Assembly: GCA_964418775.1 (NCBI GenBank)
Contig: CAYQNA010000004.1
Location: forward strand, 14,230-78,229
From: an uncultured Gammaproteobacteria bacterium
GTDB lineage: Bacteria > Patescibacteriota > Patescibacteriia > Magasanikbacterales > UBA922
DNA: 64,000 nt
Direction: 5' to 3'
A program made the position numbers and the translations under genes. The notes beneath the pieces were generated by a model that saw only the letters and a list, made by a program, of their open reading frames with translations, searched no databases and was not told where the DNA came from. This document shows positions 8,044 through 43,362 of this stretch, one piece after another (position 1 is the stretch's first letter; each line of letters begins with the position of its first letter).

Positions 8044-8049
8044 CTTTAC

Positions 8050-8094
8050 TAGAGCCACAGACCAGGATTGAACTGGTGACCTCGTCCTTACCAT
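8050..8094 (-). repeat. 45-bp direct repeat of the 3' part of tRNA-Thr(GGU) (positions 32-73 + 3 nt), intron-less; putative attR of the integrated island
   Basis: ATGGTAAGGACGAGGTCACCAGTTCAATCCTGGTCTGTGGCTCTA on the minus strand. It is identical to exon 2 plus the last 5 nt of exon 1 of the tRNA at 14623..14893. No tRNA 5' half is attached. Confidence 0.7.
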
Positions 8095-8292
8095 CAAACA
8101 ACCATACCCTGTTTCTCTCTTTTATGGCTAAGATAAAAGGAAATTTTGGGCACTTTGGCTATTTGCTGACTAGAACCAGATGACCTGTTCCCTGCCGCTG
8201 CAAACTCTTTTTTAAACCCCGTTAAATTGGGGTTATCGCAGCAAGATTTGTCTTGAATTAACAGTTTAATCATACCACAAACATATTCAGGG

Positions 8293-9057
8293 TCAAGCAG
8301 GTATTGAATCAACAAGCTCTTTAATTGCAGCAGTCTTCCAAACAAACCCAATATCAGATTCTTTATTTATTCGTCCGCTGTATATCCCAACAAGTCGCAC
8401 AGATTCCTGACTAGTGTTTAAAACCACATTTCCGTCTTCATAGCGCACCATCCCTCCTCTGTAGTAGACAATTACAGGTGACCCAGATTGCCCTGGCCTT
8501 GTGCGAGAATCAATTAAAAATAAAGGCAAGTCACGGTAGTTAATCGGAGGCTCTGAAGCTACAAATCCTGTAACCCAGATTGCAAATAAGCCACCAGCGG
8601 CTTGAGCGAATGGAAAACCTATGATATTTAATCGGTCTGCTGGCCCATACGCAATTGCAGGCGAGGCCTCTTCCAAACTATACGGAATAATGCTCACCCC
8701 TTCTAAATCAGAGAGTGGTAGAGCAACAAAATCAGCTCGCGAGCCTAATACTGGGTGTTCAATCCACCGCGGCACCTCATTACTGTCGAATAAGGGCTCA
8801 ATTTTTTCAATCCAAGAGCCTACCCGCGCAGTATGGTTATGGTAAATCAGAAACTCATTAGGGATCGCACCTGTTGTAGATAGTAGCTCACCAGTATCTT
8901 GATGACGACCAGTTACATTATGGCGGTTAGTAATAAAGTAAGGCTTTTGCGCGGAAGAATAAACTAAAAAACCTGTACCAGAAGAAATCTCCTGCCCATT
9001 AAAGCGGGTCCTCAGGAAAAGTGACATTAATGAATACTGACTAATAACAGTGGACAT
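8293..9057 (-). CDS. Trypsin-like (chymotrypsin-fold) serine peptidase
   Basis: GTGFLV…H…D…GQSGSPV catalytic-triad context (GDSGGP-like serine motif). No obvious signal peptide. Confidence 0.6.
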   Translation of the reverse strand: MSTVISQYSLMSLFLRTRFNGQEISSGTGFLVYSSAQKPYFITNRHNVTGRHQDTGELLSTTGAIPNEFLIYHNHTARVGSWIEKIEPLFDSNEVPRWIEHPVLGSRADFVALPLSDLEGVSIIPYSLEEASPAIAYGPADRLNIIGFPFAQAAGGLFAIWVTGFVASEPPINYRDLPLFLIDSRTRPGQSGSPVIVYYRGGMVRYEDGNVVLNTSQESVRLVGIYSGRINKESDIGFVWKTAAIKELVDSIPA

Positions 9058-9089
9058 AGATTTTATGATTGCAGACTAAACCTAGTTTT

Positions 9090-10034
9090 TTACAGAAGAT
9101 TATCAAAGGTAATCCGATTTACATCGTCAAGCATAGCCCTGTTTGGAAGTCCACGCAAGTAGGCACACGTCATATTTATGTCTGAATGCCCGAGCAATTG
9201 CCTTAACTTGAATATGTCAGTTCCAGAATTCAGGAGGTTAATAGCAAAGGTGTGACGAAACTTATGTGGGTTAAACTTAACACCACTTTCTCTGACGACC
9301 AAAGCAATAAAGTGCTTAAAACCGTGCATAGTAAACCTCTTATCTTCACCACTCACGACCCATAAATAAGGCGTGGTATAACGTCCTTTTCTTCGCTCGA
9401 CCAAGTACTCCTTTAGAGCAACTAAAACCTTTTGATTTAGAGGTATCCAGCGGTCACGTTTTGATTTTGAGCTTTCGGCCCTAACCCTTAATTCCTTTTT
9501 ATCCAAATCAATATCAACCAGGTGGATTCCAATAAGCTCGCCTTTTCGGATTCCACAATTAAGAAGCACAGACAGAATGGCTAAATTTCTTCGCTTAATA
9601 AGGGTATTTTTCCACTTTATGTTAAAGGAGACTGCATTAAATATGCTTTCTATACTCTCTTTTGGGATGAACTCACGCTTAGAGTAAATCACTTCTGGGT
9701 ACGGAATCCCAGAAAAAGGCCCATTACTGATATGTCCCCGCTCCCTAAGCCAGTCAAAAAATTTATTAAGTTTACTGCGATATGTAGCGACCGTTGAATT
9801 TTTAATACCCTTTTTAATCTTCCCCCTACCTACCCTACGTTCTCTTTTTTCTAGAGTACGAAAAAAATCAATCATTTTAGGCGGCGTGAGATCTGCCAAT
9901 TCTAAATCTGGATAAATTTTTAAAAGAAGCGTGAAACAGGCCCGATACCCCCTCAGGGTTTCCTCTCGCAACTTCTCGGCATAACGGCACTCCTCAATAA
10001 ATTCCTCAAAAAGCTGACTAATAGTCTTACTCAT
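9090..10034 (-). CDS. Tyrosine-type site-specific recombinase/integrase
   Basis: C-terminal catalytic motifs HKFRHTFA…LLGHSDINMTCAYL (R-H-R-Y) and an N-terminal SAM-like core-binding domain. Confidence 0.85.
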   Translation of the reverse strand: MSKTISQLFEEFIEECRYAEKLREETLRGYRACFTLLLKIYPDLELADLTPPKMIDFFRTLEKRERRVGRGKIKKGIKNSTVATYRSKLNKFFDWLRERGHISNGPFSGIPYPEVIYSKREFIPKESIESIFNAVSFNIKWKNTLIKRRNLAILSVLLNCGIRKGELIGIHLVDIDLDKKELRVRAESSKSKRDRWIPLNQKVLVALKEYLVERRKGRYTTPYLWVVSGEDKRFTMHGFKHFIALVVRESGVKFNPHKFRHTFAINLLNSGTDIFKLRQLLGHSDINMTCAYLRGLPNRAMLDDVNRITFDNLL

Positions 10035-10157
10035 ACAAAAAAGTTAATAATTACATTTGTATGAATTGAGGATAAAACAAAAAACAAACGTGTGCTAACG
10101 TTTGCTGAGTAAAATATTGGCTTATTTTAGATAAGAAACAGTACCCTGTGAGTAACT

Positions 10158-10946
10158 TTAGGAAACTTTTTCAGATTTCCATCTTAAACAGGCGCTGGAG
10201 TAGCGCTCCAGAGTAATAAACTCACCTATGTCAGAAACACCATTGTGCTGCAAATCGTAATAACACTGACGAATATAGGCCCATACTTTCTCAGGGGATT
10301 TATTTTCAATTTTACGGTTACGCTTTGGCAGTCTGTTTCTGTGTTGTACTAAATAACGATAAATACGGTCACCATCTACTGTGAAATCTGGGTTACGAAC
10401 CTTGATACAGGCTTCCAGAAATAGATAGCGCCGAGTACCATCGGCTTCAATTATGAGCTCGTCACTACCACGTCTATAAATACCTACCCACTCTTTAAGA
10501 TACAGAGCAAGATCGTCTTGAGCAGACTTATTTTTTGCAGTCTCTGTTCTGGTGTCCACACTATCATTTCCTGTGTTTTCATAGCCCAAAAGCAATGTTT
10601 CCAAAACCCGCTTTTTTACTCCAGAAAACAAAACGAGCTTTTCTAGTATTTCGCTAGAATACGGTATTTTTTGGTCTAAAATTAAATTCTTTTTAAGAGT
10701 GTCAGCTCCTGAATTAAAGTAATCTTTCCAGACCTTAGTTTTTGGCCCTAAACCCATACCCTTAAACACGTTTTCAACTTCTGCATCTGTTTTTACAAGC
10801 TTTAAAACAGTGTGGTAGATATCTTCTTGAATTTCAGGCAGATCAAGCGGTAATGCCGCTACATTGGGCATTTTAGACTCCAAAAAATAACTGCAAAAAT
10901 TCAGATCCTCTAGCAACTCTCCCAATCTTTTAGCGGTGTAATTCAT
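10158..10946 (-). CDS. Hypothetical protein (island cargo)
   Basis: 262-aa ORF with coding-like composition and no recognisable motifs. A degenerate att-core-like sequence lies immediately upstream (10948..10968). Confidence 0.5.
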   Translation of the reverse strand: MNYTAKRLGELLEDLNFCSYFLESKMPNVAALPLDLPEIQEDIYHTVLKLVKTDAEVENVFKGMGLGPKTKVWKDYFNSGADTLKKNLILDQKIPYSSEILEKLVLFSGVKKRVLETLLLGYENTGNDSVDTRTETAKNKSAQDDLALYLKEWVGIYRRGSDELIIEADGTRRYLFLEACIKVRNPDFTVDGDRIYRYLVQHRNRLPKRNRKIENKSPEKVWAYIRQCYYDLQHNGVSDIGEFITLERYSSACLRWKSEKVS

Positions 10947-11029
10947 ATGACCTCATCTTACCAAAACCACCCCAAAAATCCAGAGTAACCAAAAAGAAGG
11001 CTTTCGGCCTTCCTCTTGGATCCCGCACC

Positions 11030-11830
11030 TCAGTTTTGAATGGTTCTTAGGATACCATTACCAAAATAAAGATAACTACCCAAACCATAAACCCACTGTT
11101 CCTCCACGCTACCAGAACTAATTGTTTTATTAATATCAGTAGGCCGACCCCAGGCAGCAACCACTTGCTCCTGTGTCATTCCAATCCTGACCTTTTTGTT
11201 AGCTACGGCTCCACAAATATCCCTCTCCCAGCCTGGGTGTTCGGCACACACCTTACCTACTTTCTCTTGCTCGGCATTTTTCTTAGCAATTGTGGCTGCC
11301 TGTTCTTTGCAAAATGGATTTTGCGACTTTTTAATGCACGCGCAAAAGCCATTCCCATCCTCATTCCCCAAAATGCTATAGTTTTCGGTAGAACTAGCTA
11401 GGGATACCTTTTTAAGCACCTCTGAGGTGGTGTATTTAGAGTTAGGGTCAATAACACACACCTGGTCAATAGGTTTTTTAAGTGGTGATGTAACCCAGAT
11501 AACAAAATCACCCTTTTTCCAAAACGTAGAAGTAGCGCCTGACAGGGTACCGTTCCCCATCTTCCTTGAGGTTATCAGCGCATCTAACCCCACGTCTGAC
11601 GTAGGCGCACCCAATATTTCCTCTGCCTTGCTGCGATCAACATCAAATAGAGCTTTAGCGTCAAAAGCAGGTGTTTCTAGTGAGGCCACAAAATTCGCTC
11701 GGTCAGCTTTATTACTTTCATTAATAAATAGGCCTAGTATATTGATTATCCCAAAAAATCCAATCACGCAGGCTACTATAATACCGCAGGTTGAATGCTT
11801 CTTAGTAGGCGTACCAGCTTGCTGCTCCAT
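11030..11830 (-). CDS. Membrane-anchored hypothetical protein with Cys-rich middle region and BLIP/SmpA-like C-terminal motif (GMTQEQVVAAWGRP)
   Basis: N-terminal TM helix (IIVACVIGFFGIINILGLFI) and multiple Cys residues. Confidence 0.5.
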   Translation of the reverse strand: MEQQAGTPTKKHSTCGIIVACVIGFFGIINILGLFINESNKADRANFVASLETPAFDAKALFDVDRSKAEEILGAPTSDVGLDALITSRKMGNGTLSGATSTFWKKGDFVIWVTSPLKKPIDQVCVIDPNSKYTTSEVLKKVSLASSTENYSILGNEDGNGFCACIKKSQNPFCKEQAATIAKKNAEQEKVGKVCAEHPGWERDICGAVANKKVRIGMTQEQVVAAWGRPTDINKTISSGSVEEQWVYGLGSYLYFGNGILRTIQN

Positions 11831-11849
11831 ATAAAAAAGTTAAATATAA

Positions 11850-12040
11850 AATTGAAAAACAAAAAAGGCCCACCGTACTTTGACGGCACCCTTGCGGGGG
11901 CCCAGCACCGTTTCCAGTGCTGACTGCAACAACAATATCAAAGACGGTGAAGCCGTCTCTATGTTGTTGCAGTTTCTCGACCGTGCCTGGGGCTACTCGC
12001 CCCTAGGGTTAGGTCATATAAATTGTGCTTATAGACTACG
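11850..12040 (-). other. Structured non-coding block (multiple hairpins incl. 11-bp stem CTGCAACAACA…TGTTGTTGCAG) flanked by two minus-strand terminators; candidate small RNA or recombination site
   Basis: No ORF. At least four consecutive stem-loops are visible. There is a GC-clamp hairpin plus U-run at its 3' end (minus-strand sense, ~11866..11905). Confidence 0.3.
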
Positions 12041-12066
12041 ACAATGACATCTAAAAGTCAAATTAA

Positions 12067-12090
12067 TAAAAAAACCTTGCGAAATGCAAG
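12067..12090 (-). terminator. Intrinsic terminator (CCTTGC-ATTTC-GCAAGG + U8) downstream of the NTase/2TM gene pair
   Basis: Perfect 6-bp stem with an 8-U tract on the minus strand, 23 nt after the stop of 12113..12769. Confidence 0.5.
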
Positions 12091-12112
12091 GCTGATCTTA
12101 AAACACAAGCGA

Positions 12113-12769
12113 CTAAAAATGACGGTTAATTTCTTTGCTATGAAATTTGCAAATCAATTGACCGTGTGTTTTTCTATCACGACTGTCGTTATAATAATCC
12201 CCCTCCAGCCTCTTACCATTTACATCTTTAAAAAACTTTAGTTTGGCGCTCCCACTATGGGTCCTCATACTCAGATTACTCCTAACAGTGGATGGTTTAT
12301 TATGATAAATATAAAAAATTGACCAGACATCAAATTCATCTTTTCCAAAATTTGCTACGACACTATACGAGCAGGATTGCTGTGTATATAAATTTACTAA
12401 TATATTGGAAAAATTTTGAGTCACCTCCAAAAAACCATCATACTTATTATTACCTGACGGATCAGAAAAACTAGAAATAATTTCACACTTATACCGTCCC
12501 CCAATATATGGGATACGATGAAGCCAGCAAAAAGGCCTGAGACGCCATAACAACTTTTCGTGGGTTTTTAAAATTAAGAACAGCAGCACTGGCACTGTGA
12601 GAGGTTGAATAAGTCCCCACTGGACTAGCTGCTCAACCCAACCAAAATGGACCATACTTAACACAGATTCTGTTAAATCTGCGACATAGTTAAGCGGATA
12701 AATCAAAAACAATATTGCCAGTATGTAGAACTTATAAATTGGATTTTTTGTTTGCATACTAACGTACAC
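12113..12769 (-). CDS. Small membrane protein: two N-terminal TM helices + ~130-aa beta-rich C-terminal domain; candidate Cap15-like (2TM-β-barrel) CBASS effector
   Basis: TM segments IYKFYILAILFLIYPLNYV and LIQPLTVPVLLFLILKT. It overlaps the upstream NTase gene by 11 nt (an operon). Confidence 0.45.
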   Translation of the reverse strand: MYVSMQTKNPIYKFYILAILFLIYPLNYVADLTESVLSMVHFGWVEQLVQWGLIQPLTVPVLLFLILKTHEKLLWRLRPFCWLHRIPYIGGRYKCEIISSFSDPSGNNKYDGFLEVTQNFSNILVNLYTQQSCSYSVVANFGKDEFDVWSIFYIYHNKPSTVRSNLSMRTHSGSAKLKFFKDVNGKRLEGDYYNDSRDRKTHGQLICKFHSKEINRHF

Positions 12770-13637
12770 CTAAAGCTTTTTTCCATTTATCTTCTGCAAA
12801 AGTCACCGAACGCGCCTGATAAGCGTCTATTCCATCCCGAAGTGAAAGAGCTAACCTTGTTTCAAAGTTAGAACGTGCATTCGCGGGCCAATTAGACAAA
12901 ATGTTTTCGTGTCCGCAAACACTTAAAACAGAACCACCCGGCACGTCAAGTTTTTCCAGAATAGAATGGGAAATTCTTAAAAAAGAGCTTGGAGGGTCAC
13001 TCAAAAAAAATCTATTTTCTGCCCCATAAACCAGCGCTTCAATTTTGTGAGAGGAAATAATTTCATTTTTCGGCCCAAAATGATTGATGGCCCAGTTTTT
13101 GAACATACGGACCATTGGTTTATACCTCTCCCCAGTATCCTGATTTTTTTGTACACCGTTCTTATAGTGAATACGCGGGCGACTAACCTTTTCCACTGCA
13201 TCTCTAAAGGAGTAAATACAGATAGGATCAGCTGTGTGGTCAGGAGAAACCATAACAGCAGGAACCACATCAACACTAAAGGCACCACTAATTTTTATAC
13301 ACTTGTCACCACGTTTTACTGTCCAAGAATAACGTTTTTGATCCCCTAAGACAGTTTCAATCTCAGAAAATATCTGTTCCCAATCTATACTCTGCGGGAA
13401 ACTGTAGCCTGAGTGAACTCCGCTAAAGGTGTCAAGCCTAACAGCAACAATATCAACGTCGTTAATATCAGAAATTGCTGTATCATTTTTATACGAACCC
13501 TGAAGGAAGGTATGGTGGGTCGTTCCAAGAAGCTCTTGGATATAATTCTGCAAAATGGCGACACTGCTGATTTTTGCAGGTGTAGGCCCTGCTGTGTAGG
13601 GCTTGACTAAGTGATCGGGTATCTGGTGAGCTGGCAT
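12759..13637 (-). CDS. cGAS/DncV-like nucleotidyltransferase (CD-NTase / SMODS-like), putative cyclic-oligonucleotide synthase
   Basis: Pol-beta NTase signature GSYKNDTAISDINDVDIV (GS…[DE]h[DE]h), followed about 60 aa later by the third acidic motif SVDVVPAV. The protein has about 290 aa with a C-terminal helical region. Confidence 0.55.
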   Translation of the reverse strand: MPAHQIPDHLVKPYTAGPTPAKISSVAILQNYIQELLGTTHHTFLQGSYKNDTAISDINDVDIVAVRLDTFSGVHSGYSFPQSIDWEQIFSEIETVLGDQKRYSWTVKRGDKCIKISGAFSVDVVPAVMVSPDHTADPICIYSFRDAVEKVSRPRIHYKNGVQKNQDTGERYKPMVRMFKNWAINHFGPKNEIISSHKIEALVYGAENRFFLSDPPSSFLRISHSILEKLDVPGGSVLSVCGHENILSNWPANARSNFETRLALSLRDGIDAYQARSVTFAEDKWKKALGVR

Positions 13638-13679
13638 ATTTATTTAAAAATCCTTACCTCATCATACACCTTTTTTAAT

Positions 13680-14600
13680 TTAAATCAATGACTGGGAATT
13701 AAGCGGGTGTTTCCCTATCTGTCCCCTCAAGTGCTCGGCGCTCGCCGCCAGGTAAATAGTGGTTGTCTTAATGTCACTGTGCCCCATCATTTTTGACAAC
13801 GAAAAAATATCGCACCCACCCTCCAGCATTAAAGTAGCGAATGTGTGGCGTAGCTTGTGAATTCCAAACCTAAGGCCAGACGCGTTCATTATATTTCTGG
13901 TCAGAACTTTTAGGCCGTTTTCAGTAAAAGCGCAATCACGATTAAGTGAAGTAAAGAACTCGGGGCATTTTTTATTAAGGCGTTTACGCTCTGCCAGATA
14001 CTTGGTCAGGCTTTCGGCCAAGGTAAACGAAATTGGAATAACACGGTCCTTACCACCCTTGCCCTGGTTTACGAACAGGGACATATTTTGCAGATCAACG
14101 TCCTGGTATTTAAGGCTTAACAACTCTTTGCGGCGTATGCCTGTAAACAAGAACATTGAAAATATGGCGTGGTTGCGGTAACGCTGGTAACGATATTTGT
14201 ACGGGTAATTATAAGCCACCTCCAGCAGTCGCATTGCGTCCTGTTTAGTTAGCTTGGGTGGAAGTTTTTTATTAATCTTAGGTAACTCAATATCGTCCAT
14301 TGGATTTTTGTCCAAAAATTTATTTTCAACACACCAGCGAAAAAATACCACCAATGTTTTGTGGTAAGTCACAAATGAATTTGCCGACCATTTCTTTTCC
14401 GTCCGACCCCAAAAAAAGTAGTTACGCGTATTGTCCTCTGTCACCTCCTCTATCTCCTTAATGCCCGCGTGGGCGGCATACAACTTAATGACCTTCCGAT
14501 ACCTGACCAAGGTGGTCTGGCTAAACCCGCGAAAATACTTTGAATACTCGCAAAACCTTTCCCCCAATAAAAAAATGTCCATAAAAACAAAATATCGCAA
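13680..14600 (-). CDS. Tyrosine-type site-specific recombinase/integrase (adjacent to tRNA-Thr attachment site)
   Basis: HKLRHTFAT…MMGHSDIKTTTIYL catalytic motifs. It is paralogous to the integrase at 9090..10034. The start could be Met7 (14582). Confidence 0.85.
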   Translation of the reverse strand: MRYFVFMDIFLLGERFCEYSKYFRGFSQTTLVRYRKVIKLYAAHAGIKEIEEVTEDNTRNYFFWGRTEKKWSANSFVTYHKTLVVFFRWCVENKFLDKNPMDDIELPKINKKLPPKLTKQDAMRLLEVAYNYPYKYRYQRYRNHAIFSMFLFTGIRRKELLSLKYQDVDLQNMSLFVNQGKGGKDRVIPISFTLAESLTKYLAERKRLNKKCPEFFTSLNRDCAFTENGLKVLTRNIMNASGLRFGIHKLRHTFATLMLEGGCDIFSLSKMMGHSDIKTTTIYLAASAEHLRGQIGKHPLNSQSLI

Positions 14601-14622
14601 ATCGCTGCGATATTTCTAGTAG

Positions 14623-14893
14623 AGCCACAGACCAGGATTGAACTGGTGACCTCGTCCTTCGTGTATACCTCTATTTCGTCCCCAGAGGGCTTTATAAGAG
14701 GGCTAGACTGTATCTTAGGCTTCCTTACGGGTCAGCCTCCCTTGTCAGTCGTTCGGGCGTAAAATACGCCACGGTCTTGGCCATTGCTGGCTATTAACCG
14801 TTATTCGGGCTTCACTGTTAGATTTCTCAGACAGTGGGCACATCTGTGTGCAGATATACCATGGACGCGCTCTACCAACTGAGCTACTGCGGC
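14623..14893 (-). tRNA. tRNA-Thr(GGU) interrupted by a 198-nt group I intron between anticodon-loop positions 36 and 37
   Basis: Exon 1 is GCCGCAGTAGCTCAGTTGGTAGAGCGCGTCCATGGT (14893..14858). Exon 2 is AAGGACGAGGTCACCAGTTCAATCCTGGTCTGTGGCT (14659..14623). Joined, they give a canonical 73-nt cloverleaf with anticodon GGT. Confidence 0.7.
14660..14857 (-). ncRNA. Group I self-splicing intron (small, Azoarcus/cyanobacterial tRNA-intron-like)
   Basis: The 5' exon ends in U and pairs as a U•G wobble in a 10-bp P1 (GGUAUAUCUG / CAGAUGUGCC). J8/7-P7 reads AAGATACAGTC (consensus AAGATATAGTC) with a compensatory GACTG/CAGTC P7. P2, P8 and P9 hairpins are present. The intron ends with G. Confidence 0.6.
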
Positions 14894-15006
14894 ATTGAAT
14901 TGTACGGACTTTTTAACCTGTCGCCCGCGGCCATATTTAGTTGGGAACAGGCCATATGTCTTGGGGCATTTCGCTAAAATTAGCCACGAAATACCACTTT
15001 ACATAC

Positions 15007-15054
15007 GACCTATTCCTTACCATGGACGCGCTCTACCAACTGAGCTACTGCGGC
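15007..15054 (-). pseudogene. Truncated tRNA-Thr(GGU) 5' fragment (positions 1-48, two mismatches in anticodon stem, no T-arm/acceptor 3' strand)
   Basis: GCCGCAGTAGCTCAGTTGGTAGAGCGCGTCCATGGTAAGGAATAGGTC, then unrelated sequence. It lies 124 nt upstream of the intact tRNA-Thr. Confidence 0.5.
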
Positions 15055-15152
15055 GAAATCCTGAGTGTCGTGCCGAGCTTGCTCGAGCATGACCGAAGGA
15101 TGAGCCGCAGCACGAAGTGCAGCGGCGACAAGGGCCTGGACCCTTTCTGTCG

Positions 15153-15226
15153 TGCGCGCCGAGGGATTCGAACCCCCGACCCTCTCGGTGTAAACGAGAT
15201 GCTCTAACCAACTGAGCTAGGCGCGC
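15153..15226 (-). tRNA. tRNA-Val(TAC)
   Basis: GCGCGCCTAGCTCAGTTGGTTAGAGCATCTCGTTTACACCGAGAGGGTCGGGGGTTCGAATCCCTCGGCGCGCA. The anticodon loop is TTTACAC. Confidence 0.85.
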
Positions 15227-15315
15227 TTAAAGTGTCAGTATTATAGGAAATCCCCAGAAATAAGTCAACCCCCTATTTTAAACCCCAAATTCTGGTATAC
15301 TATGGCCACACCCCT

Positions 15316-16809
15316 ATGGAATACCGGCAACATCGTGAACGGATTAGTGAATTTACCGACTCAGAATACCTGGGGAAAACTACCCAGGACATCTTGAAGC
15401 ACGCGTACTACGGGGCCGCATCTTTAGCAACTCTAGAGGAAAGTCAAAATAATCCAGGCGAAACCGAACGCTATGCTCGTACTTGGATTAGGATCGACAT
15501 TATGGCTTTATTTAATTATGGCTCAGGCAAAACAGGTTTAACGCTATGCACAGAAACCTGGTCCCAACCCGCCATCCAGGCAGGCTGGGAACAATTATTC
15601 AATGATGAGAAAATTCTCTATTCACCTCCCCTCACCCCCGAATTTGTCTGGGAAAATGTCACTCATAATTCTGAACTCCTGCAGCACTTCCCTGGTGATT
15701 TTGCGGAACAACTGCTTAGGGCCCACGTTGATCACATGAATAAACTGCAGGGGGAGTTTGAGGTCAATGAACTACCCACAATAATGACCGAGGTGGACGA
15801 AAAAATAATTCGCGCGATTAATAATCAGATTCTACCCATCACGATTGATCAATGGCAACACATTAAAGATAACACCAAGATCATTGTAATGGATACAATT
15901 AAAGGCGAAGAGATTGGGGGTAATGCCAATGGACCGGTAATCTCAATTACTTCGCAAGCATCTTTAGCCGAAAAGACTCATATTGCAATTCACGAATTTA
16001 TCCACCGTCTGAATGGCAGTATCATCAAAAAGACCACGACCACTGGCACCCCCAAATACGGTGACCCAGAAACAGACATTGATTATAACAATGTTCGCAG
16101 CGGATTATTGTTTACGACCCCATTCTATCGAACACCCAAACGGCAATGGATTAATGAGGCTGTTACCGAAGATACGGCTTTAGCAGTCGACAACCAAGAA
16201 TACAGTGAGTACTACGAGGCTGAGCGCCAGTTACTTGAGCTTCTCGTACAATCACTTGGGCCTTCTAGCCGAGAATTGTTGCGCACAGTTTATTTTGAGG
16301 ACCCGGGAGTTGAAGCAGAGAAAAACCTCACAGAGTATCGCGCTTTAACCCGTTTGGTTTTGGAAAAACTAGGCCCCGGTTTTTTAAATAATTTGGAAAA
16401 ATTTATTCATGGCCAACGGGGCAATGATGGGACCACCGTGGATCCAAGTACAGCCGCAGAAATTGCCGCCAAAAAATGGCAAAAGTTGGGTCTACATTTT
16501 CCTGAGTATTTGACAGAGTGGTGCAGACAACAGGGGGAAATCACCCAACTAGCCCTAGGCCTGATTGAAAGCGTTAAAACAGAGAACCCCGAGGCGCTTA
16601 GTAAGCTCGATAAATATTCCTCCCCACATGCATACGAAGAGGTATGGAAGACATATTTTAAGGCAAAAATCCCAAAACCCTCACAGTACCTTACTGCCAC
16701 CCTACATGATTTAGTTATCAAAAAGCTAACTTACACAACAACCCGTGCAGCTTACCGTACGAAATTTGGTATTGAGCCCAAAGATCCGCTCACTGACTAT
16801 ATTGGGTAA
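15316..16809 (+). CDS. Hypothetical protein with HExxH zinc-metallopeptidase motif (IAIHEFIHRL)
   Basis: 497 aa with a single HEFIH motif in a hydrophobic helix context. No signal peptide or TM helix is seen. Confidence 0.5.
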   Translation: MEYRQHRERISEFTDSEYLGKTTQDILKHAYYGAASLATLEESQNNPGETERYARTWIRIDIMALFNYGSGKTGLTLCTETWSQPAIQAGWEQLFNDEKILYSPPLTPEFVWENVTHNSELLQHFPGDFAEQLLRAHVDHMNKLQGEFEVNELPTIMTEVDEKIIRAINNQILPITIDQWQHIKDNTKIIVMDTIKGEEIGGNANGPVISITSQASLAEKTHIAIHEFIHRLNGSIIKKTTTTGTPKYGDPETDIDYNNVRSGLLFTTPFYRTPKRQWINEAVTEDTALAVDNQEYSEYYEAERQLLELLVQSLGPSSRELLRTVYFEDPGVEAEKNLTEYRALTRLVLEKLGPGFLNNLEKFIHGQRGNDGTTVDPSTAAEIAAKKWQKLGLHFPEYLTEWCRQQGEITQLALGLIESVKTENPEALSKLDKYSSPHAYEEVWKTYFKAKIPKPSQYLTATLHDLVIKKLTYTTTRAAYRTKFGIEPKDPLTDYIG

Positions 16810-16828
16810 ACAAGATGATCTAACTAAC

Positions 16829-17728
16829 TCAGCTTTTTGGCTTATTTTTAGCTTTTTCAGCCGCGTATTCTTCCTTAACTTCTTGCCAAAACAACCGAGC
16901 GCGCTGCTCGTTTTGCCCCACTCCAAACCGACGCAACATTGACACCTGGACTGGAGTTAAGGCAATTCCCGCATCCTGCAAATCAAAATACCCCCGGTCA
17001 TTGGTATCATAAAATGGATTTCGGGGATCACGCTGTGCCTCGGCCAACAAGTCTGGATTCTGCTGGTAGTACTCGTTTAACGCTGCCTCGGTATTCCCTT
17101 GTGTTTGCAGCTCTGCCCATGCGCCTGGCGGCAAATATTCAATTACTGATTTGGCTTCGACCACAGGCACATCCACATACCCCAAGTTCCAGGCCACAAA
17201 TTCGTTTACTAAAAATTCCTGGGCTGCCGGGGCACCATCTTCGCGATTTATTGTTTGATACAAAGTTTCGTACGTTGGATCGACTGCAAACAACCAGTTC
17301 GCAATTTTTTCTTCACCGTGCGCCTGAATAAGCGCGGTCGTTAATTCACTTTTTTCTTGGTTGTCAAAAAAATCCCACTGCTGATGTGTTAATTCGTGCG
17401 CAATTTTACGGACCACCGTTGATTCTTTTCCCTGCAATGAATGTTCGTAATACGCCATTACCCCAAATTCAGGCGCATCAGGTTTCTTGCGCCCATCACG
17501 AGAATGTGTGTTTACATACGAAAAACCATCGCCCGCCTGATTTCGGTACTCGATCACCGGCAATCCAAGCGCCTCCACTTCACGGCGCTCCTGGTGTGAT
17601 TCTGGCTCCGAGTCAGTGTAATACGACTCAGTCTCTGTTTTGTCACTGTGCTCAGCGCGCGCCTCGCGCCCACCCATCATCATTCCGGCCACAAACGCCA
17701 AGCCACTGCGCCAAAATTCACGGGGCAT
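16829..17728 (-). CDS. Putative secreted zincin-like metallopeptidase (HELTH motif; DUF4157-like AHELTHQQ signature)
   Basis: The N-terminus is signal-peptide-like (…GLAFVAGMMMGGREARA). It carries a VVRKIAHELTHQQWD motif. Confidence 0.45.
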   Translation of the reverse strand: MPREFWRSGLAFVAGMMMGGREARAEHSDKTETESYYTDSEPESHQERREVEALGLPVIEYRNQAGDGFSYVNTHSRDGRKKPDAPEFGVMAYYEHSLQGKESTVVRKIAHELTHQQWDFFDNQEKSELTTALIQAHGEEKIANWLFAVDPTYETLYQTINREDGAPAAQEFLVNEFVAWNLGYVDVPVVEAKSVIEYLPPGAWAELQTQGNTEAALNEYYQQNPDLLAEAQRDPRNPFYDTNDRGYFDLQDAGIALTPVQVSMLRRFGVGQNEQRARLFWQEVKEEYAAEKAKNKPKS

Positions 17729-17731
17729 ATT

Positions 17732-18448
17732 TTATTTTGACACTTCGACTTCGGCCGCAGCGTTAAGTTCGATTCCCGGGAACTGAGTTTTTAAGTCTGC
17801 TAATTTTTTTTGCAAACCCTGTTGAACATACCGCGCTTCGGCACTATCTGCCATACCAGCCTGGCGAAAACCGCGTAAAGTGCGCAACATACTATCGGCT
17901 GTAGTTAGCTGCAAATTGACTCGTTCACGCATTAGGTTAAGTTGGGCTGGATTAGAGACTTTTTCCGTTAACCAATCTGGAAAACCACTAACCTCGCCAA
18001 AAGCCATTGTAGTCGCGCCTGATTCAGCACTTGAGTTAAACTCCGCGGTCCATTCTGTTTTATCACCAGTAGTTTCGGAATACAATTTTGACTGTGTTAG
18101 CACTTCGTCACCAGGCTGTCCTGGGGTTGGATCTTCCAGTAGGACTATTTTGGTGGCTACGGTGTCTACGTTTACACCCTCTGTCGATTCTTGTTCGTGT
18201 TTTTGGAGAACAGCCACCCGACCACCTTCGAAATTTTTATCAATCTTCTCTACCCCCGCAGTTGCTTCGGCCGATGGCGGCGCAGCCTCGGCCCGACCAG
18301 CAGCAGACAAACCAATGGTTAAAACTAAGGTTGCCCAAACACCCTGTGCCCGTTCACGTAACGCCGACAATAACGATGGTTCTTCGGCACCGGATTCTGG
18401 TCGCGCCTTAAAATTACGTGCTTCTTCGGGGATAAATTGTTCAGACAT
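17732..18448 (-). CDS. Membrane-anchored hypothetical protein (single N-terminal TM helix, extracytoplasmic domain)
   Basis: TM segment VWATLVLTIGLSAAG. The stop is 4 nt before the start of the HELTH protein, suggesting co-transcription. Confidence 0.5.
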   Translation of the reverse strand: MSEQFIPEEARNFKARPESGAEEPSLLSALRERAQGVWATLVLTIGLSAAGRAEAAPPSAEATAGVEKIDKNFEGGRVAVLQKHEQESTEGVNVDTVATKIVLLEDPTPGQPGDEVLTQSKLYSETTGDKTEWTAEFNSSAESGATTMAFGEVSGFPDWLTEKVSNPAQLNLMRERVNLQLTTADSMLRTLRGFRQAGMADSAEARYVQQGLQKKLADLKTQFPGIELNAAAEVEVSK

Positions 18449-18506
18449 ATTTAACTTTTAAGAATACTCATAAACTGTAGCAAGTGTGATTATTGCTGTC
18501 AACAAA

Positions 18507-19370
18507 TTAAAGCTGGCATTTTGGGCAAAAATGGGTGCCCCGACCAGCCAAGGTGACCTTTTTAATTGGGGTTTGGCAACGGCGGCATGGCTCCCCTTTT
18601 TTACCATACACCTCCAGAAATTTCAGAAACCCACCCTTTTGGCCATGACCATCAACAAAGTGATTAAAGGTTGTACCCCGATGTTTAACGCCAAGTTCAA
18701 TCACATCATGACACGCCTGCCACAATTTTTTTAATTCTTTTTCTGTTAACGTATTAACGCGCCGCCCAGGCTGAATTTTGGCGCGCCACAACGCCTCGTC
18801 CACATAAATATTACCCATGCCCGAAATTACCGCTTGATTCAACAACACAGCTTTAATATTTGTTTTACGGCCCGCGAGCGCTTTTTTAAAATTGGACCAA
18901 GTAAAATTGTCTGTCAGCGGCTCAATTCCATAGCCGCTTTTAATTTTCTCTAATTCGGCGCGGCTCGCTAATTTCAAATATCCAAACAAACGCAAGTCAT
19001 TAAAAAATAAGTGCGCTCCGTTTTTAAATGTAATGATTAAACGTGTGTGTTTATTTGGTAATTCAGCGTCTTGCTTGGACAATGAGTGTCCGCCAGCCAA
19101 AACCGTTTTGCCTGACTGATAAATCATTTGCCCAGTCATTTTTAAATGCACCAAAATGACCTCATCAATTCCGTTCAATTCAATAATGAGCAATTTGCCG
19201 ATACGCGCAATTGCTTTGACTGAATCACCGTGCAATTTTTTGGTTAATTGCGCTGCACTCAAAGGCCGAATTGTTTTGGAATGCAAAACCTCCACACTAG
19301 TAATGGGGAGGTTTAGTAGCGCTCGCTCCAAATCGCGGCGCACGGTTTCGACTTCGGGTAATTCTGGCAT
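18507..19370 (-). CDS. mutM: Formamidopyrimidine-DNA glycosylase
   Basis: N-terminal MPELPEVE catalytic Pro2/Glu3, H2TH and a C-terminal CxxC…CxxC zinc finger. Confidence 0.9.
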   Translation of the reverse strand: MPELPEVETVRRDLERALLNLPITSVEVLHSKTIRPLSAAQLTKKLHGDSVKAIARIGKLLIIELNGIDEVILVHLKMTGQMIYQSGKTVLAGGHSLSKQDAELPNKHTRLIITFKNGAHLFFNDLRLFGYLKLASRAELEKIKSGYGIEPLTDNFTWSNFKKALAGRKTNIKAVLLNQAVISGMGNIYVDEALWRAKIQPGRRVNTLTEKELKKLWQACHDVIELGVKHRGTTFNHFVDGHGQKGGFLKFLEVYGKKGEPCRRCQTPIKKVTLAGRGTHFCPKCQL

Positions 19371-27513: not shown

Positions 27514-27600
27514 GGAGAGATGGCTGAGCGGTTTAAGGCGACAGTCTTGAAAACTGTTGAGGATGCAAGTCCTCCGTGGGTTCGAATCCCACTCTCTCCG
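27514..27600 (+). tRNA. tRNA-Ser(TGA), type II
   Basis: GGAGAGATGGCTGAGCGGTTTAAGGCGACAGTCTTGAAAACTGT…GGGTTCGAATCCCACTCTCTCCG. Confidence 0.85.
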
Positions 27601-27624
27601 CTTGGTGCACATTGACAATTCACT

Positions 27625-27711
27625 GGAGAGTTGGCTGAGTGGTCGATAGCAACAGTTTACTAAACTGTAGTCCCTTTACGGGGACCGGGGGTTCGAATCC
27701 CTCACTCTCCG
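27625..27711 (+). tRNA. Type II (Ser-like) tRNA whose anticodon loop reads TTACTAA, i.e. anticodon ACT (unusual A34)
   Basis: GGAGAGTTGGCTGAGTGGTCGATAGCAACAGTTTACTAAACTGTAGTCCCTTTACGGGGACCGGGGGTTCGAATCCCTCACTCTCCG. The anticodon stem is a clean 5-bp ACAGT/ACTGT. Confidence 0.6.
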
Positions 27712-27743
27712 CGAAAACAGGCAAAATCACCAAAAAACACCAT

Positions 27744-27828
27744 GGAGAGGTGTCAGAGTGGCCGATCGTGCAGCTTTGCTAAAGCTGTGTTCCGCAAGGA
27801 ACCGCGGGTTCGAATCCCGCCCTCTCCG
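27744..27828 (+). tRNA. tRNA-Ser(GCT), type II
   Basis: GGAGAGGTGTCAGAGTGGCCGATCGTGCAGCTTTGCTAAAGCTG…GGGTTCGAATCCCGCCCTCTCCG. Confidence 0.85.
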
Positions 27829-27869
27829 CACATTGTCAACGCACAATTTAAACCTTAAGGGTAACCACT

Positions 27870-38361: not shown

Positions 38362-40233
38362 TTAACTGCGACCCTGCGGACGATTTTGCATTTGTGCTTC
38401 GTATTCGCGCTTAGCTTTTTCCATTTGCAAAAGCTGCTTCGGGTCAGACGTAATTAGTTGATCTTCGGTGTACGACGCGACAATTTTAATCGCCGCGTGT
38501 TTATTGCCGGCAAAGAAAATCCCCTCACCCACCGCACTCTCGAGGAGCAGGTATTTTTCACCTTCGGTCAACATAAACACGCGCTGGATCATATCCACCG
38601 CGGCTGGAGATTGACGGAGCAGTAACTGCAACGACGAGTTGGTCACAATTGCTTGACCATATTGCGAGCGCAAAAAGTCGTTCACGTCTTGCGTAATCGT
38701 AGTCACGCCCAAATAATATTTGCGACACCGTTTTACCAGCGCGTAAATAAACTTGGCACTGTCTTCGTGCGTCATGAGCCACCAGGCTTCGTCAATCACG
38801 AGCACACGTTTTTTTTGCTCGGACCGCACAATATTCCAAATGTGGTTGATGAGCGAGTAAATTGCCATTGGACGCAGTTCGTCTTCCAAATCGCGCACAC
38901 TAAAAATCACGAGTTGATTTTTTACATTTACGTTGGTTGGTGAATTGAACAAGCCCGCAAACGTACCCTCGGTATACTTACGCAACTTCAACACCAATTG
39001 TTCGGCACCTTCCATGCCTTCCAAAATATCAAGTAAATCCTGCATGATTGGCGGCTCAACCGTGGCCAAGTCAGACAGTGGTGTAATATCTTTTTTCGCA
39101 TACGTTTCCAGGAGCGCACGGTCCAAAATCGAATCTTCTTGTGGTGTAATTGCCCCAAACATAATCCGCAGCATACCCTTGATCGTAATAACTGCACTGC
39201 GAATAATATCCTCGGTCGAAATTTGCTGACCAACTGGCCGCGGCAAATCAAACGGATTGACCTTACTTTCGCTGGCGAGCGAAATGTTCACATAGGTACC
39301 ACCTACCGCTTCGCACAAATGCACGTATTCCATTTCCGGGTCAATGACAATAATTTCTGCACCCATCATTAAACTGCGGAGCACCTCAAGCTTCACCGCA
39401 TATGACTTACCCGCACCAGATGTCGCGAACACCACCATGTTTGCATTCTGGAGCGAGAAACGATCAAACAAAATCAAACTATTATTATGGCGATTAATGC
39501 CATACAAAATCCCATCATCACTGGTAAGTTCGGACGAAATAAATGGGAATGATGACGCAATCGGTGACGAGTTCATGTTGAACGTAATCGCGAGTTCATC
39601 AATACCCAGCGGCAGCGTGGACGTAAAACCCTGCTCAGCTTGATACAAAACGTTTTTACTATAAATCAACCGCGCCCCAAACAAATTTTCAATTTCTTCA
39701 GTCAGTTTTTCCAATTCTTTTTTGTCCTGACTATACATGGTTACGTAAAACGCAAATTGGAAAAAATGCTCCACACCTTGCGTCAAGTCATCGCGCAATT
39801 GTTCAATATCGCGGAGCGCCGTTTCGCGCAGCGGGTCGCGTGGCGCACCTTTTTCCGCATCGGCCGAAAGCTGCGCCTGCAGTGCACCCACTTTTTTCTT
39901 CAGCTGTTTCAAAATAATCGCCGACTTCACCGGATAAAAGAACATGCTAATATCCATGGTGTAGTTGAGGTTCAAAATTGGCGCACTCCAACCAACCGCA
40001 ATGTAGCGCGGATATGTGACTACAAACGTGGTGCGTAAATACGTGGTGCCCAACTGGATAAAGCTCGATTCCACTGAAAACGCAGATGGCGCAATCAAGT
40101 CGCGAATTGCCACCGTACCCTCGCGATAGACTTTTTCCTCTTGTACGGTCGCGAGTTCGGATGCTAATTCAGGCCCATTTTTATTGGGCTTCATGACCTT
40201 GCGACTGTTGGGTTGAATGGGCTTGAATGGCAT
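38362..40233 (-). CDS. VirB4/TraC/PrgJ-like T4SS ATPase
   Basis: Walker A VVFATSGAGKSYAVK and Walker B LVIDEAWWLM (the DEAW box typical of VirB4). The start is placed at MPFKPIQ, immediately after the upstream gene's stop. Confidence 0.75.
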   Translation of the reverse strand: MPFKPIQPNSRKVMKPNKNGPELASELATVQEEKVYREGTVAIRDLIAPSAFSVESSFIQLGTTYLRTTFVVTYPRYIAVGWSAPILNLNYTMDISMFFYPVKSAIILKQLKKKVGALQAQLSADAEKGAPRDPLRETALRDIEQLRDDLTQGVEHFFQFAFYVTMYSQDKKELEKLTEEIENLFGARLIYSKNVLYQAEQGFTSTLPLGIDELAITFNMNSSPIASSFPFISSELTSDDGILYGINRHNNSLILFDRFSLQNANMVVFATSGAGKSYAVKLEVLRSLMMGAEIIVIDPEMEYVHLCEAVGGTYVNISLASESKVNPFDLPRPVGQQISTEDIIRSAVITIKGMLRIMFGAITPQEDSILDRALLETYAKKDITPLSDLATVEPPIMQDLLDILEGMEGAEQLVLKLRKYTEGTFAGLFNSPTNVNVKNQLVIFSVRDLEDELRPMAIYSLINHIWNIVRSEQKKRVLVIDEAWWLMTHEDSAKFIYALVKRCRKYYLGVTTITQDVNDFLRSQYGQAIVTNSSLQLLLRQSPAAVDMIQRVFMLTEGEKYLLLESAVGEGIFFAGNKHAAIKIVASYTEDQLITSDPKQLLQMEKAKREYEAQMQNRPQGRS

Positions 40234-40234
40234 A

Positions 40235-40927
40235 CTAAACGTTTTCGATTTGGATATCTTGCACATTGCCCAAGGTTTCGGCAAACGCAATGTCTGGATT
40301 ATAAGTCGCGTAATACAATTCGATCAGCGCCTGCGTGTCCAGTTCAACTGGGGTTAGGCCAATGCTACTCAGACCGCCCATAATTTGCCGCACACGCGAC
40401 TGCAGTTCGCCACGGCGGGCCTGAAAACGCTCGTCCTTTAACCGCACACTACTGGCCGGACGCAACACTTCTTTAAACCGCGACCAAAAACTTTTACTTT
40501 TGTTCGACAGTGGGTCATACGGAATCACCACATAATACCGCTTGGTCATAATTTGCCCGATTTCCACTAATTCTTCCACAAAAGCCCGATAATCCGCAGT
40601 TTGTACGCGCAGCAATTCATTGGTTTGTTCTTTTTCCAAAAGACGCATTTTTTCCAAATACGGTTTAATTTGTAATTTGCGCGACTGCACGACAACCTGA
40701 ATCGGGTAATCAATTGCATTTAAAAAACTGACGTACGATGAGATAATCGCGTTCTGTTCATCTTCGGATTTAAGCGCAAAATTCAAACTCGACACGAGCA
40801 AAACAGAACGCAGTGTGCCGTCTTTTAAAATCACAACCCCATCACGAATTTCCGCAATTGGCAAATTCGCCTGCGTGGGCGGGCGGGTGTTCTTTTTCTT
40901 TTTTTTCATTTCTTGTTTGTCAGCCAT
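40235..40927 (-). CDS. T4SS-associated protein resembling the N-terminal domain of VirB4/PrgJ-type ATPases
   Basis: IAEIRDGVVILKDGTLRSVLLVSSLNFALKSEDEQNAII pattern and a poly-Lys N-terminus. It is directly upstream of and coupled with the ATPase. Confidence 0.4.
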   Translation of the reverse strand: MADKQEMKKKKKNTRPPTQANLPIAEIRDGVVILKDGTLRSVLLVSSLNFALKSEDEQNAIISSYVSFLNAIDYPIQVVVQSRKLQIKPYLEKMRLLEKEQTNELLRVQTADYRAFVEELVEIGQIMTKRYYVVIPYDPLSNKSKSFWSRFKEVLRPASSVRLKDERFQARRGELQSRVRQIMGGLSSIGLTPVELDTQALIELYYATYNPDIAFAETLGNVQDIQIENV

Positions 40928-40929
40928 AT

Positions 40930-41364
40930 TTAGATATGGTCATCGGGCCGATAAAAACCACCTGTGTTTGCCAGTAACGCCAGATCGCGAATGCGTTCAC
41001 GTTTGGCTGGCACGGTTTTGGTTACCTCCACAAACTCAACCTCCGTCCCCTCTTTGCGCAAATATTCCAGCTCAGCATCAGTGTAATACTTGCCCCACAC
41101 ACGTAAACTCGGGCGACGCATGGTCTGGAAAATGTTGAGCAAAAAGTAATGAAATGTTTGGCCATTCACTTTTACAAACGCGAGCACAAGCGCGCCACCG
41201 CCAACGAGCGCGAGAATTAAAATAAATAAAGCCATGTCGCCAAACCGAAACGCCAGGAACACAATAATCCCGGCCGTAAGCAAAATTAAAAATTGGCGGG
41301 TCGTGATTGGCCCAAAAATTTTGTCTTCCACCTCGATAAATTGTGGCACGACAAATTGTTGCAT
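40930..41364 (-). CDS. Small 2-TM membrane protein (VirB3/PrgI-like position)
   Basis: Two hydrophobic helices. It precedes the VirB4-like genes, as PrgI/VirB3 do. The start is at MQQFVVP. Confidence 0.4.
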   Translation of the reverse strand: MQQFVVPQFIEVEDKIFGPITTRQFLILLTAGIIVFLAFRFGDMALFILILALVGGGALVLAFVKVNGQTFHYFLLNIFQTMRRPSLRVWGKYYTDAELEYLRKEGTEVEFVEVTKTVPAKRERIRDLALLANTGGFYRPDDHI

Positions 41365-41365
41365 A

Positions 41366-42403: not shown

Positions 42404-42404
42404 A

Positions 42405-43349: not shown

Positions 43350-43362
43350 AGACTAGAAGGTG

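Follow-up and report, generated by a model that had tools for sequence, protein, structure and literature searches.

A putative group I intron in a tRNA-Thr(GGU) gene carried by an integrative element that probably replaces the broken resident gene of a patescibacterium

Group I introns in the tRNA genes of Patescibacteria were recently surveyed by Nakagawa et al., who reported introns between positions 36 and 37 of tRNA-Thr(GGU) in three of 95 complete genomes (GCA_001029635.1, GCA_016700375.1 and GCA_030583745.1). Such 'divergent group I introns', a term introduced by Castelle et al. (2018, Nat Rev Microbiol), are missed by the Rfam group I model RF00028 and are partly mis-called by ARAGORN as introns at position 34/35 of tRNA-Arg(GCG); gpI_bact_tRNA.cm, a covariance model (Williams, 2020), detects the Thr 36/37 introns. 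In the published tree they occupy a long branch together with IA-type patescibacterial tRNA introns, and the survey inferred limited movement from genome to genome for tRNA introns that lack homing endonucleases (Nakagawa et al., 2026, mSystems; PMC13011429). Herein, we describe a tRNA-Thr(GGU) gene split by a 198-nt insert, together with the 6,929-bp integrated element in which it lies, within a 64,000-nt stretch of DNA (the window) taken from contig CAYQNA010000004.1 of assembly GCA_964418775.1 (positions 14,230 to 78,229, forward strand).

The window insert shares with the published Thr introns its tRNA, its insertion site, its phylum, invisibility to RF00028 and Arg(GCG) mis-calls by ARAGORN; its size and overall fold are comparable, and no difference was seen in the intron itself. 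On the grounds that host gene, insertion site and phylum are the same and that the detection tools respond alike, with the three published introns compared by description only, it is assigned to the already published patescibacterial tRNA-Thr(GGU) 36/37 family, and its own novelty is therefore low (PMC13011429). What sets the present case apart from the survey is that the gene is the cargo of an integrase-bearing element and that the family is found in at least 114 species-level genomes. An earlier reading of the window from its letters alone (the sequence-only reading) had called group I introns in tRNA-Thr rare, which these genomes show to be wrong within the phylum. It had also likened the insert to the intron of Azoarcus, a poor description given the IA-type rather than IC3 placement in the published tree. 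The introns of Azoarcus tRNA-Ile, Anabaena tRNA-Leu(UAA) and Agrobacterium tRNA-Arg likewise interrupt the anticodon loop after a U, use the anticodon in P1, measure about 200 nt and encode no endonuclease. However, those introns are detected by RF00028 and belong to subgroup IC3, whereas the window family escapes RF00028, is placed with IA-type introns in the published tree and has a P3 helix of only 3–4 bp.

Two further systems resemble the surroundings of the gene. Islander/TIGER tRNA-targeting islands likewise carry a tyrosine integrase next to a tRNA, cross over in the anticodon loop, are flanked by short direct repeats, have an empty site in a relative and may bring defence cargo. The usual island carries the 3' part of its target and thereby rebuilds the gene; here, in contrast, the corresponding arm (NNNNNAGGTC...) retains just a remnant of the tRNA, a dead fragment is left behind, and a complete second tRNA-Thr is supplied, which is split by an intron in 19 and intronless in 5 integrase-linked tRNA-Thr(GGU) loci (PMC4383910 for the islands). 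The nearest analogue of the element context is the tRNA-Thr(GGU) locus of Caldiarchaeum subterraneum, where a 5' fragment likewise lies upstream of an intron-containing gene with a recombinase-bearing segment. That locus is archaeal, its introns are protein-spliced, and its recombinase is situated between fragment and gene; furthermore, the model proposed there has the mobile element create the intron, whereas here a ribozyme-type intron would be pre-existing cargo (Sugahara et al., 2012; PMC3293823). In the literature searched, no description of an integrative-element context for the Thr intron was found.

We put at about 85% the probability that the insert represents a group I intron belonging to the tRNA-Thr(GGU) 36/37 family and that the split gene is cargo of the 6,929-bp element, replacing a resident copy which the element has broken. 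The gene lies on the minus strand, as do all features described below unless stated otherwise. Exon 1 (14858..14893; tRNA positions 1–36) ends in GGU, three bases that are at once the anticodon and the exon side of P1. It is followed by the 198-nt intron (14660..14857; ATATCTG...ACACG), delimited by fold, pair counts and a family model, and by exon 2 (14623..14659; positions 37–73). With introns allowed, ARAGORN calls a tRNA-Thr(ggt) with a perfect cloverleaf and a 198-nt intron at 36–37; without introns, neither ARAGORN nor the Rfam tRNA model calls a gene at this place. The spliced product is identical, in 73 of 73 positions, to the intronless tRNA-Thr(GGU) of a related genome, L240, which also corroborates exon 2. 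The exon-intron boundary is ambiguous by one A and can be written as 36/37 or 37/38. Thus, the halves lie 198 nt apart at 14623–14893 and join to a perfect 73-nt cloverleaf, as the sequence-only reading had it, with the strand now added. Its proposal of a group I intron after U36 likewise remains the supported central reading, since predicted architecture, covariation, cross-matches of a core model and the literature all favour it.

The predicted architecture follows the group I order throughout. P1 (14860..14851 / 14846..14837; GGUAUAUCUG/CAGAUGUGCC) is formed by the exon end and intron start, GGU|AUAUCUG, pairing with CAGAUGUGCC, and places U36 in a U.G pair at the 5' splice site. The fold then gives P2 (14836..14831 / 14818..14813), the pseudoknotted P3 (CCC/GGG; 14809..14807 / 14741..14739), P4 (14801..14796 / 14776..14771), P5 with a GCAA loop (14791..14788 / 14783..14780) and P6 (14770..14765 / 14761..14756). 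J6/7 and the 5' strand of P7 (14755..14746) read CGAAC-GACUG, while J8/7 and the 3' strand (14716..14706) read AAGAUA-CAGUC, so that P7 (GACUG/CAGUC) encloses P8 (14738..14734 / 14721..14717). P9 (14701..14697 / 14672..14668) precedes the terminal G, or omega-G, at 14660, which is the last intron base. Hence, all core helices from P3 to P9 can be placed in canonical order with the P3/P7 pseudoknot, and the elements listed earlier (P1 with U36.G, the P2, P8 and P9 hairpins, P7, the AAGAUA of J8/7 and the final G) are all present. Most of these helices already occur in the minimum-energy fold of the precursor, which has a z-score of -4.5 relative to shuffled sequences, none of 200 being as good.

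The insert recurs widely at the same position. A pattern specific to it, GACTGACAAGGG-N15-45-TAAGATACAGTC, was scanned against one genome per species and found at no fewer than 119 genome loci; among the matches listed, 114 are tRNA-Thr(GGU) genes split at the same position according to ARAGORN. Altogether, more than 130 loci, nearly all of them in Patescibacteria, carry an insert at this site of tRNA-Thr(GGU). The hosts among the matches listed, nearly all known from patescibacterial metagenome-assembled genomes, include Saccharibacteria, Paceibacteria/Parcubacteria, Nomura-, Yanofsky-, Harrison-, Taylor-, Wolfe-, Doudna- and Andersenbacteria as well as others, and their introns measure 171 to 261 nt (median about 198). 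For some homologues ARAGORN names Arg(GCG), His(GUG) or Pro(GGG), but these calls are boundary slips: without exception, the first exon terminates in TGGT and the second opens with AA followed by the complement of the anticodon stem, so all are tRNA-Thr(GGU) genes interrupted after U36. A search that started from the integrase added 18 further introns, all 18 of the same family. Given this recurrence at one tRNA-Thr(GGU) site, the insert is not a chance match.

Covariation was assessed on an alignment of 100 distinct introns (A1), in which pairs were counted for the structure read from the window copy. Paired cells make up 89.9% versus 77.9% after shuffling, and none of 500 shuffles reaches the observed value; the covariation score is 0.325, compared with 0.116 for shuffled alignments and 0.06–0.09 when the partners are slid by 1–3 columns. 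Changes on both sides were seen at 7 pairs of P1, 6 of P2, 4 each of P5, P6 and P9, and 3 of P8. All 100 introns have the splice-site U.G as well as a G at their end, where the picker of splice sites required a terminal G, a column that sits in a conserved ..G|AA context. In addition, all columns that are invariant across these homologues, which come from many classes of the candidate phyla radiation (CPR), are intact in the window copy.

The surroundings of the gene indicate how it came to be there. The relative L240 (GCA_964390625.1), reached through the downstream APH-family protein (80% identity), has tRNA-Val(tac), an intact intronless tRNA-Thr(ggt) and then the same terminator, 248-aa gene and APH gene as the window. 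Deleting 8085..15013 in silico renders the window colinear with L240, with a 157-nt gapless block across the junction and 490 of 537 positions identical. The deleted segment, 6,929 bp on the minus strand, is poorer in GC (0.41) than the remainder of the window (0.48). Since the site is empty in L240 and the excision is seamless, the resident gene was intronless and the intron-bearing gene came with the element.

Both ends of the element lie in the resident tRNA-Thr(GGU). The left attachment site, attL (14982..15054), recognised from the Rfam tRNA model, the repeat and the L240 empty site, consists of the resident 5' part joined to the element arm GGAATAGGTCG.... The resident part covers positions 1–41 (15054..15014) and equals exon 1 plus AAGGA, that is, an uninterrupted anticodon loop. 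The resulting 73-nt pseudo-tRNA, situated about 125 nt upstream of the split gene, has lost its T arm; it scores 18.7 bits with the Rfam tRNA model (cut-off 29), and ARAGORN is silent. The right site, attR (8047..8094), located from the repeats and L240, lies 6.5 kb downstream of the split gene, where the core (8094..8085) runs into the resident 3' half (8089..8047): the sequence ...ggttgtttgATGGTAAGGACGAGG...GGCTCTA has an uninterrupted loop, a perfect 3' half and the host terminator. The 10-nt core ATGGTAAGGA occurs once at each end of the insertion, at 15023..15014 in attL, and the attP of the element reads ggttgtttgATGGTAAGGAATAGGTC.... The split tRNA gene lies about 120 nt inside the element and is followed, after about 22 nt, by the tyrosine integrase gene int1 (13683..14600; Pfam Phage_integrase, 1e-30), which starts beyond a terminator-like hairpin found by a terminator scan at 14616..14589. 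As in a site-specific element, there is an integrase, direct repeats flank the insertion, and the site is unoccupied in a relative. The element does not restore the target with a copy of the displaced part; a whole extra tRNA gene is supplied instead. Because the arm does not rebuild the target, the element-borne intron copy is the only intact tRNA-Thr(GGU) at the locus. The sequence-only reading had named an intact intronless tRNA-Thr(GGU) elsewhere in the genome, combined with a dead split copy, as the situation that would speak against it; the locus presents the reverse, the intronless copy being the dead one.

The same repeats could be read in another way, with the intron gene as the resident, an ordinary island at its 3' end (attL 14659..14617, attR 8089..8047) and the upstream fragment as a relic. 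Exon 2 is indeed directly repeated over 43 nt, and the integrase gene immediately follows the tRNA, which is the textbook layout of an island. Nevertheless, the empty site in L240 is intronless and its 5' part corresponds to 15054..15014, not to exon 1 at 14893, which excludes the textbook arrangement; the deletion of 8085..15013 restores an intronless gene without a gap, and attR has ATGGT before AAGGACG, again an uninterrupted anticodon loop. Moreover, the upstream half and the first cargo exon are not the same in five other loci (L226, L144, L261, L286 and L270), with differences at several positions in L226 and L144, which shows that two separate genes are involved. A resident intron gene is therefore extremely improbable, and the split gene is better regarded as cargo.

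The layout is not confined to the window. A host 5' half ending in TGGTAA, a spacer of about 120 nt, an intron-bearing tRNA and an integrase gene follow one another at about 25 other loci. Among the motif-found matches listed, 8 of 111 loci have an intronless 5' half ending in ..TGGTAA at 117–140 nt upstream, with host-half scores of 25.5–38 against a control maximum of 22.5, and in 8 of the motif-found loci listed an int1 homologue lies 28–77 nt downstream; in the motif-found loci with a host half, an arm such as TAAATAGGTC follows it. From the integrase side, 80 metagenome loci were collected whose integrases are 59–81% identical to int1, and 66 of them had enough upstream DNA. An intron-split tRNA-Thr(GGU) lies 24–51 nt before the integrase in 19 of the 66, an intronless tRNA-Thr(GGU) in 5, a Thr(CGU) gene in 5 and a Thr(UGU) gene in 1; in 9, a tRNA-Lys is found about 120 nt from the integrase, and the rest have none. 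An upstream host half, often differing from the cargo gene, was found at 15 of 17 loci with intron-bearing and 4 of 5 with intronless cargo. The search for attR succeeded in L248 (a 3.7-kb element with intron-bearing cargo) and L243 (9.6 kb, intronless cargo) only, as the remaining elements extend past the locus sequence. L206 and L238 look like intact attP sites. In L243, L271, L273 and L283, the intronless cargo tRNA-Thr(GGU) is not identical to the broken host gene, the differences lying for the most part in the anticodon stem.

Several observations on these loci stand apart from the window. Integrases of the same family adjoin tRNA-Thr(CGU) in L280, L285, L304, L306 and L314; in L285, L304 and L314 the upstream fragment ends in ..TTTCGTAA followed by TAAACAG(G/T)TC, L280 has no clear upstream half, and the upstream match of L306 is a separate intact tRNA-Thr(GGU). 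In L255, L265, L272, L274, L276, L279, L282 and L320 the integrase is about 120 nt from a tRNA-Lys(UUU). The integrase family thus seems to switch targets, only some of which are provided with a complete replacement gene. Furthermore, element-borne intron-tRNA-Thr genes occur on contigs labelled as non-CPR: L206 (NZ_JMIY01000006.1; Candidatus Methanoperedens nitroreducens, 75.7 kb), L213 (a Simkania metagenome-assembled genome, MAG), L218 (Candidatus Kapaibacterium, a 509-kb contig) and L238 (an Ignavibacteria MAG). The att site of L206 looks unrecombined (..ggttgATGGTAAcgaacaggtc..). These copies could reflect mis-binning or contamination, or an element that reaches beyond the phylum. For the window itself, ArnT-like and TraG-like matches and the non-CPR labels on element-bearing MAG contigs raised the question of a non-CPR origin, which was ruled out by its SecY: this protein is 70–78% identical to proteins named Candidatus Magasanikbacteria, and the window is accordingly patescibacterial.

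Several results weigh against the proposed intron and its role. RF00028 gives no match at its gathering score, nor at E<=10, on either 901 nt or 236 nt, an outcome that the sequence-only reading, which proposed this check, had itself listed as refuting. P3 has only 3 bp in the window (CCC/GGG), against 4 bp in most relatives, the fourth pair being a G.A in the window where 77 of 113 relatives have U-A or U.G; inspection by eye and a tabulation of flanking bases for a longer P3 or another partner of GGG yielded only this fourth pair, which the window lacks. P3, P4 and P7 never vary and are 100% paired across the 100 introns, and so provide no covariation evidence; the search pattern had fixed P7 and the 3' strand of P3 but left P4 and the other strand (5') of P3 free. 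The published self-splicing in vitro concerns the Asn and Asp 35/36 introns only (PMC13011429). With regard to expression, no promoter-like site was found in the 121-nt spacer before the cargo gene, and the genome could hold another tRNA-Thr(GGU) elsewhere.

The RF00028 negative is uninformative for this family, because the same tool scores canonical introns normally and the blind spot is published; the failure probably arises because the model expects a 7-bp P3, while P3 is short throughout the family. The value of the core motifs was gauged by scanning viral contigs with ACGACTR-N15-45-TAAGATAYAGTC. The matches are group I introns that score 50–92 bits with RF00028 in the same tool, which indicates that the motifs are genuine core signatures and that the tool works. 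In these viral introns P7 covaries, GACTG occurring with CAGTC and GACTA with TAGTC, the two forms between which the sequence-only reading had seen a compensatory change. In addition, a covariance model, R1, was built from the P3–P8 core of the family (alignment A2). It scores the window copy at 109 bits, with no other match in the window, and in 82 kb of viral loci it yields 19 full-length matches, 13 of them inside introns that reach the RF00028 gathering level. The best cross-match (35.2 bits, E 5e-7) falls in L042. The viral-contig intron of L042 (2936–3076, minus strand) scores 56 bits with RF00028 and has a short P3 of the ACCCGA / UAGGGA type; it may link the 'divergent' Thr introns with the canonical ones.

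The absent RF00028 match and the very short P3 might also suggest a group I remnant that has decayed and lost its activity, within a split tRNA that would be a passively carried pseudogene. This is very unlikely, as all columns invariant in the family are intact, helices are kept by compensatory changes, and the exons form a perfect cloverleaf identical to the functional gene of L240; since the resident copy is destroyed, losing both would strip the locus of tRNA-Thr(GGU). Alternatively, the minimal P3 and the short peripheral elements could make the fold marginal, such that it would need a protein cofactor, or the insert might be removed through another pathway, for example by an endonuclease at 37/38, the boundary being writable either way. 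Only the 36/37 position, however, gives a U before the site, a final intron G in all 100 introns and the conserved U.G of P1. No tRNA splicing endonuclease is known from bacteria. Furthermore, self-splicing in vitro is on record for the related Asn and Asp introns of Patescibacteria (PMC13011429). We judge dependence on a cofactor or another pathway very unlikely.

Under the preferred reading, a self-splicing group I intron in a replacement gene, the anticodon GGU would pair with the internal guide GCC, the U36.G pair of P1 marking the 5' splice site. This site would be attacked by an external guanosine held in P7, after which the terminal G at 14660 would take the place of that guanosine and the exons would be joined to a normal 73-nt tRNA-Thr(GGU). 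As for the origin of the split gene, the element used the core ATGGTAAGGA to recombine into the anticodon loop of the intronless resident tRNA-Thr(GGU). The cargo gene is probably transcribed by read-through from the tRNA-Val promoter across the dead 5' fragment, ending at its own terminator; the only promoter-like site of the region lies at 15268..15240, ahead of tRNA-Val, and expression of the cargo copy is inferred, given the spacer that lacks one. The resident tRNA-Val(UAC) (15152..15226), called by ARAGORN and Rfam and arranged in the same way in L240, heads the tRNA-Val / tRNA-Thr unit that the element entered.

Besides the tRNA and int1, the element carries a cyclic oligonucleotide-based antiphage signalling system (CBASS; 12116..13637), consisting of a SMODS/CD-NTase cyclase (13637..12762) and a Cap15-type two-transmembrane (2TM) effector (12769..12116). 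PADLOC assigns them as Cyclase (9e-26) and 2TM Effector (1e-33), and Pfam as SMODS and Cap15_CD_rec. It is a minimal system, the cyclase adjacent to a nucleotide-sensing effector, in a 6.9-kb integrative element of a CPR bacterium. Directly downstream of this pair, a LOOT RNA (RF03000; 11885..12015) scores 75.9 bits against a gathering score of 46.4, and the role of this orphan RNA motif may be hinted at by its presence in a small mobile element that carries a defence system. A second tyrosine recombinase (10034..9093; Pfam) and a trypsin-like protein (9057..8296; PADLOC candidate PDC-S45, 6e-17) form the distal end (8296..10034), and two unknown open reading frames (ORFs) complete the content. 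No internal att-like tRNA remnant was found within the element, so that it does not look like two tandem elements. A blastn comparison of the locus with phage genomes gave matches only in the tRNA parts.

Next to the tRNA unit, about 3.3 kb (15227–18507) between fpg and tRNA-Val hold three ORFs (238, 299 and 497 aa) without a Pfam match. This stretch is absent in L240, where tRNA-Val directly follows fpg; it represents an unexplained second insertion or deletion. The 497-aa protein matches only itself among 5.8 billion proteins and is useless as a handle for synteny, and exact look-ups of the window proteins found none on record. Elsewhere in the window, three tandem tRNA-Ser genes lie at 27514–27829 (plus strand), the middle one with an ARAGORN anticodon of ACT, which in a bacterium would be unusual. 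At 38365–46314 (minus strand), a VirB4/CD1110-type conjugation ATPase adjoins a 983-aa ORF without family matches, and this part of the window may represent a conjugative element or a locus for type IV secretion.

Beyond the cargo gene, the dead target and their recurrence, which are observed directly, it is conjecture that the intron has a selective role and that the elements spread it. In such a scheme, the integrase elements of this family would be the vehicle that spreads an endonuclease-less tRNA-Thr intron through Patescibacteria: they would hit the anticodon loop of an intronless resident, kill that gene and make the host rely on the element copy. The intron of the cargo gene sits exactly inside the 7-nt crossover core (ATGGT|AA), and the cargo gene might thereby be no substrate for its own integrase or for related elements, the split core shielding it. 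We hold this proposal as a whole to be tentative and rather doubtful. Five integrase-linked cargo tRNA-Thr(GGU) genes have no intron, and most intron-bearing tRNA-Thr genes among the motif-found matches listed have no integrase or attL nearby, both of which speak against a strict need for the intron. The elements with intronless cargo (L243, L271, L273 and L283) provide a natural control for claims that the intron is needed. It is an idea reportedly due to Randau and Soll (2008) that interrupted tRNA genes escape integration; if the shielding is true, the present elements would be its bacterial, ribozyme-based counterpart.

For genome analysis, the consequence is that standard annotation with Rfam and default ARAGORN leaves tRNA-Thr(GGU) 'missing' in CPR genomes, and estimates of completeness are distorted as a result. 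For the biology of the family, the locus shows concretely how a tRNA gene with an intron can travel as cargo and take over from an intronless resident, a route supported by the empty site in a relative and by the parallel cases described above, and one to be set beside the published conclusion of little intron transfer between genomes. Two questions can now be tested: whether the intron phylogeny tracks the integrase or the host, and whether a split att core protects the tRNA gene that contains it.

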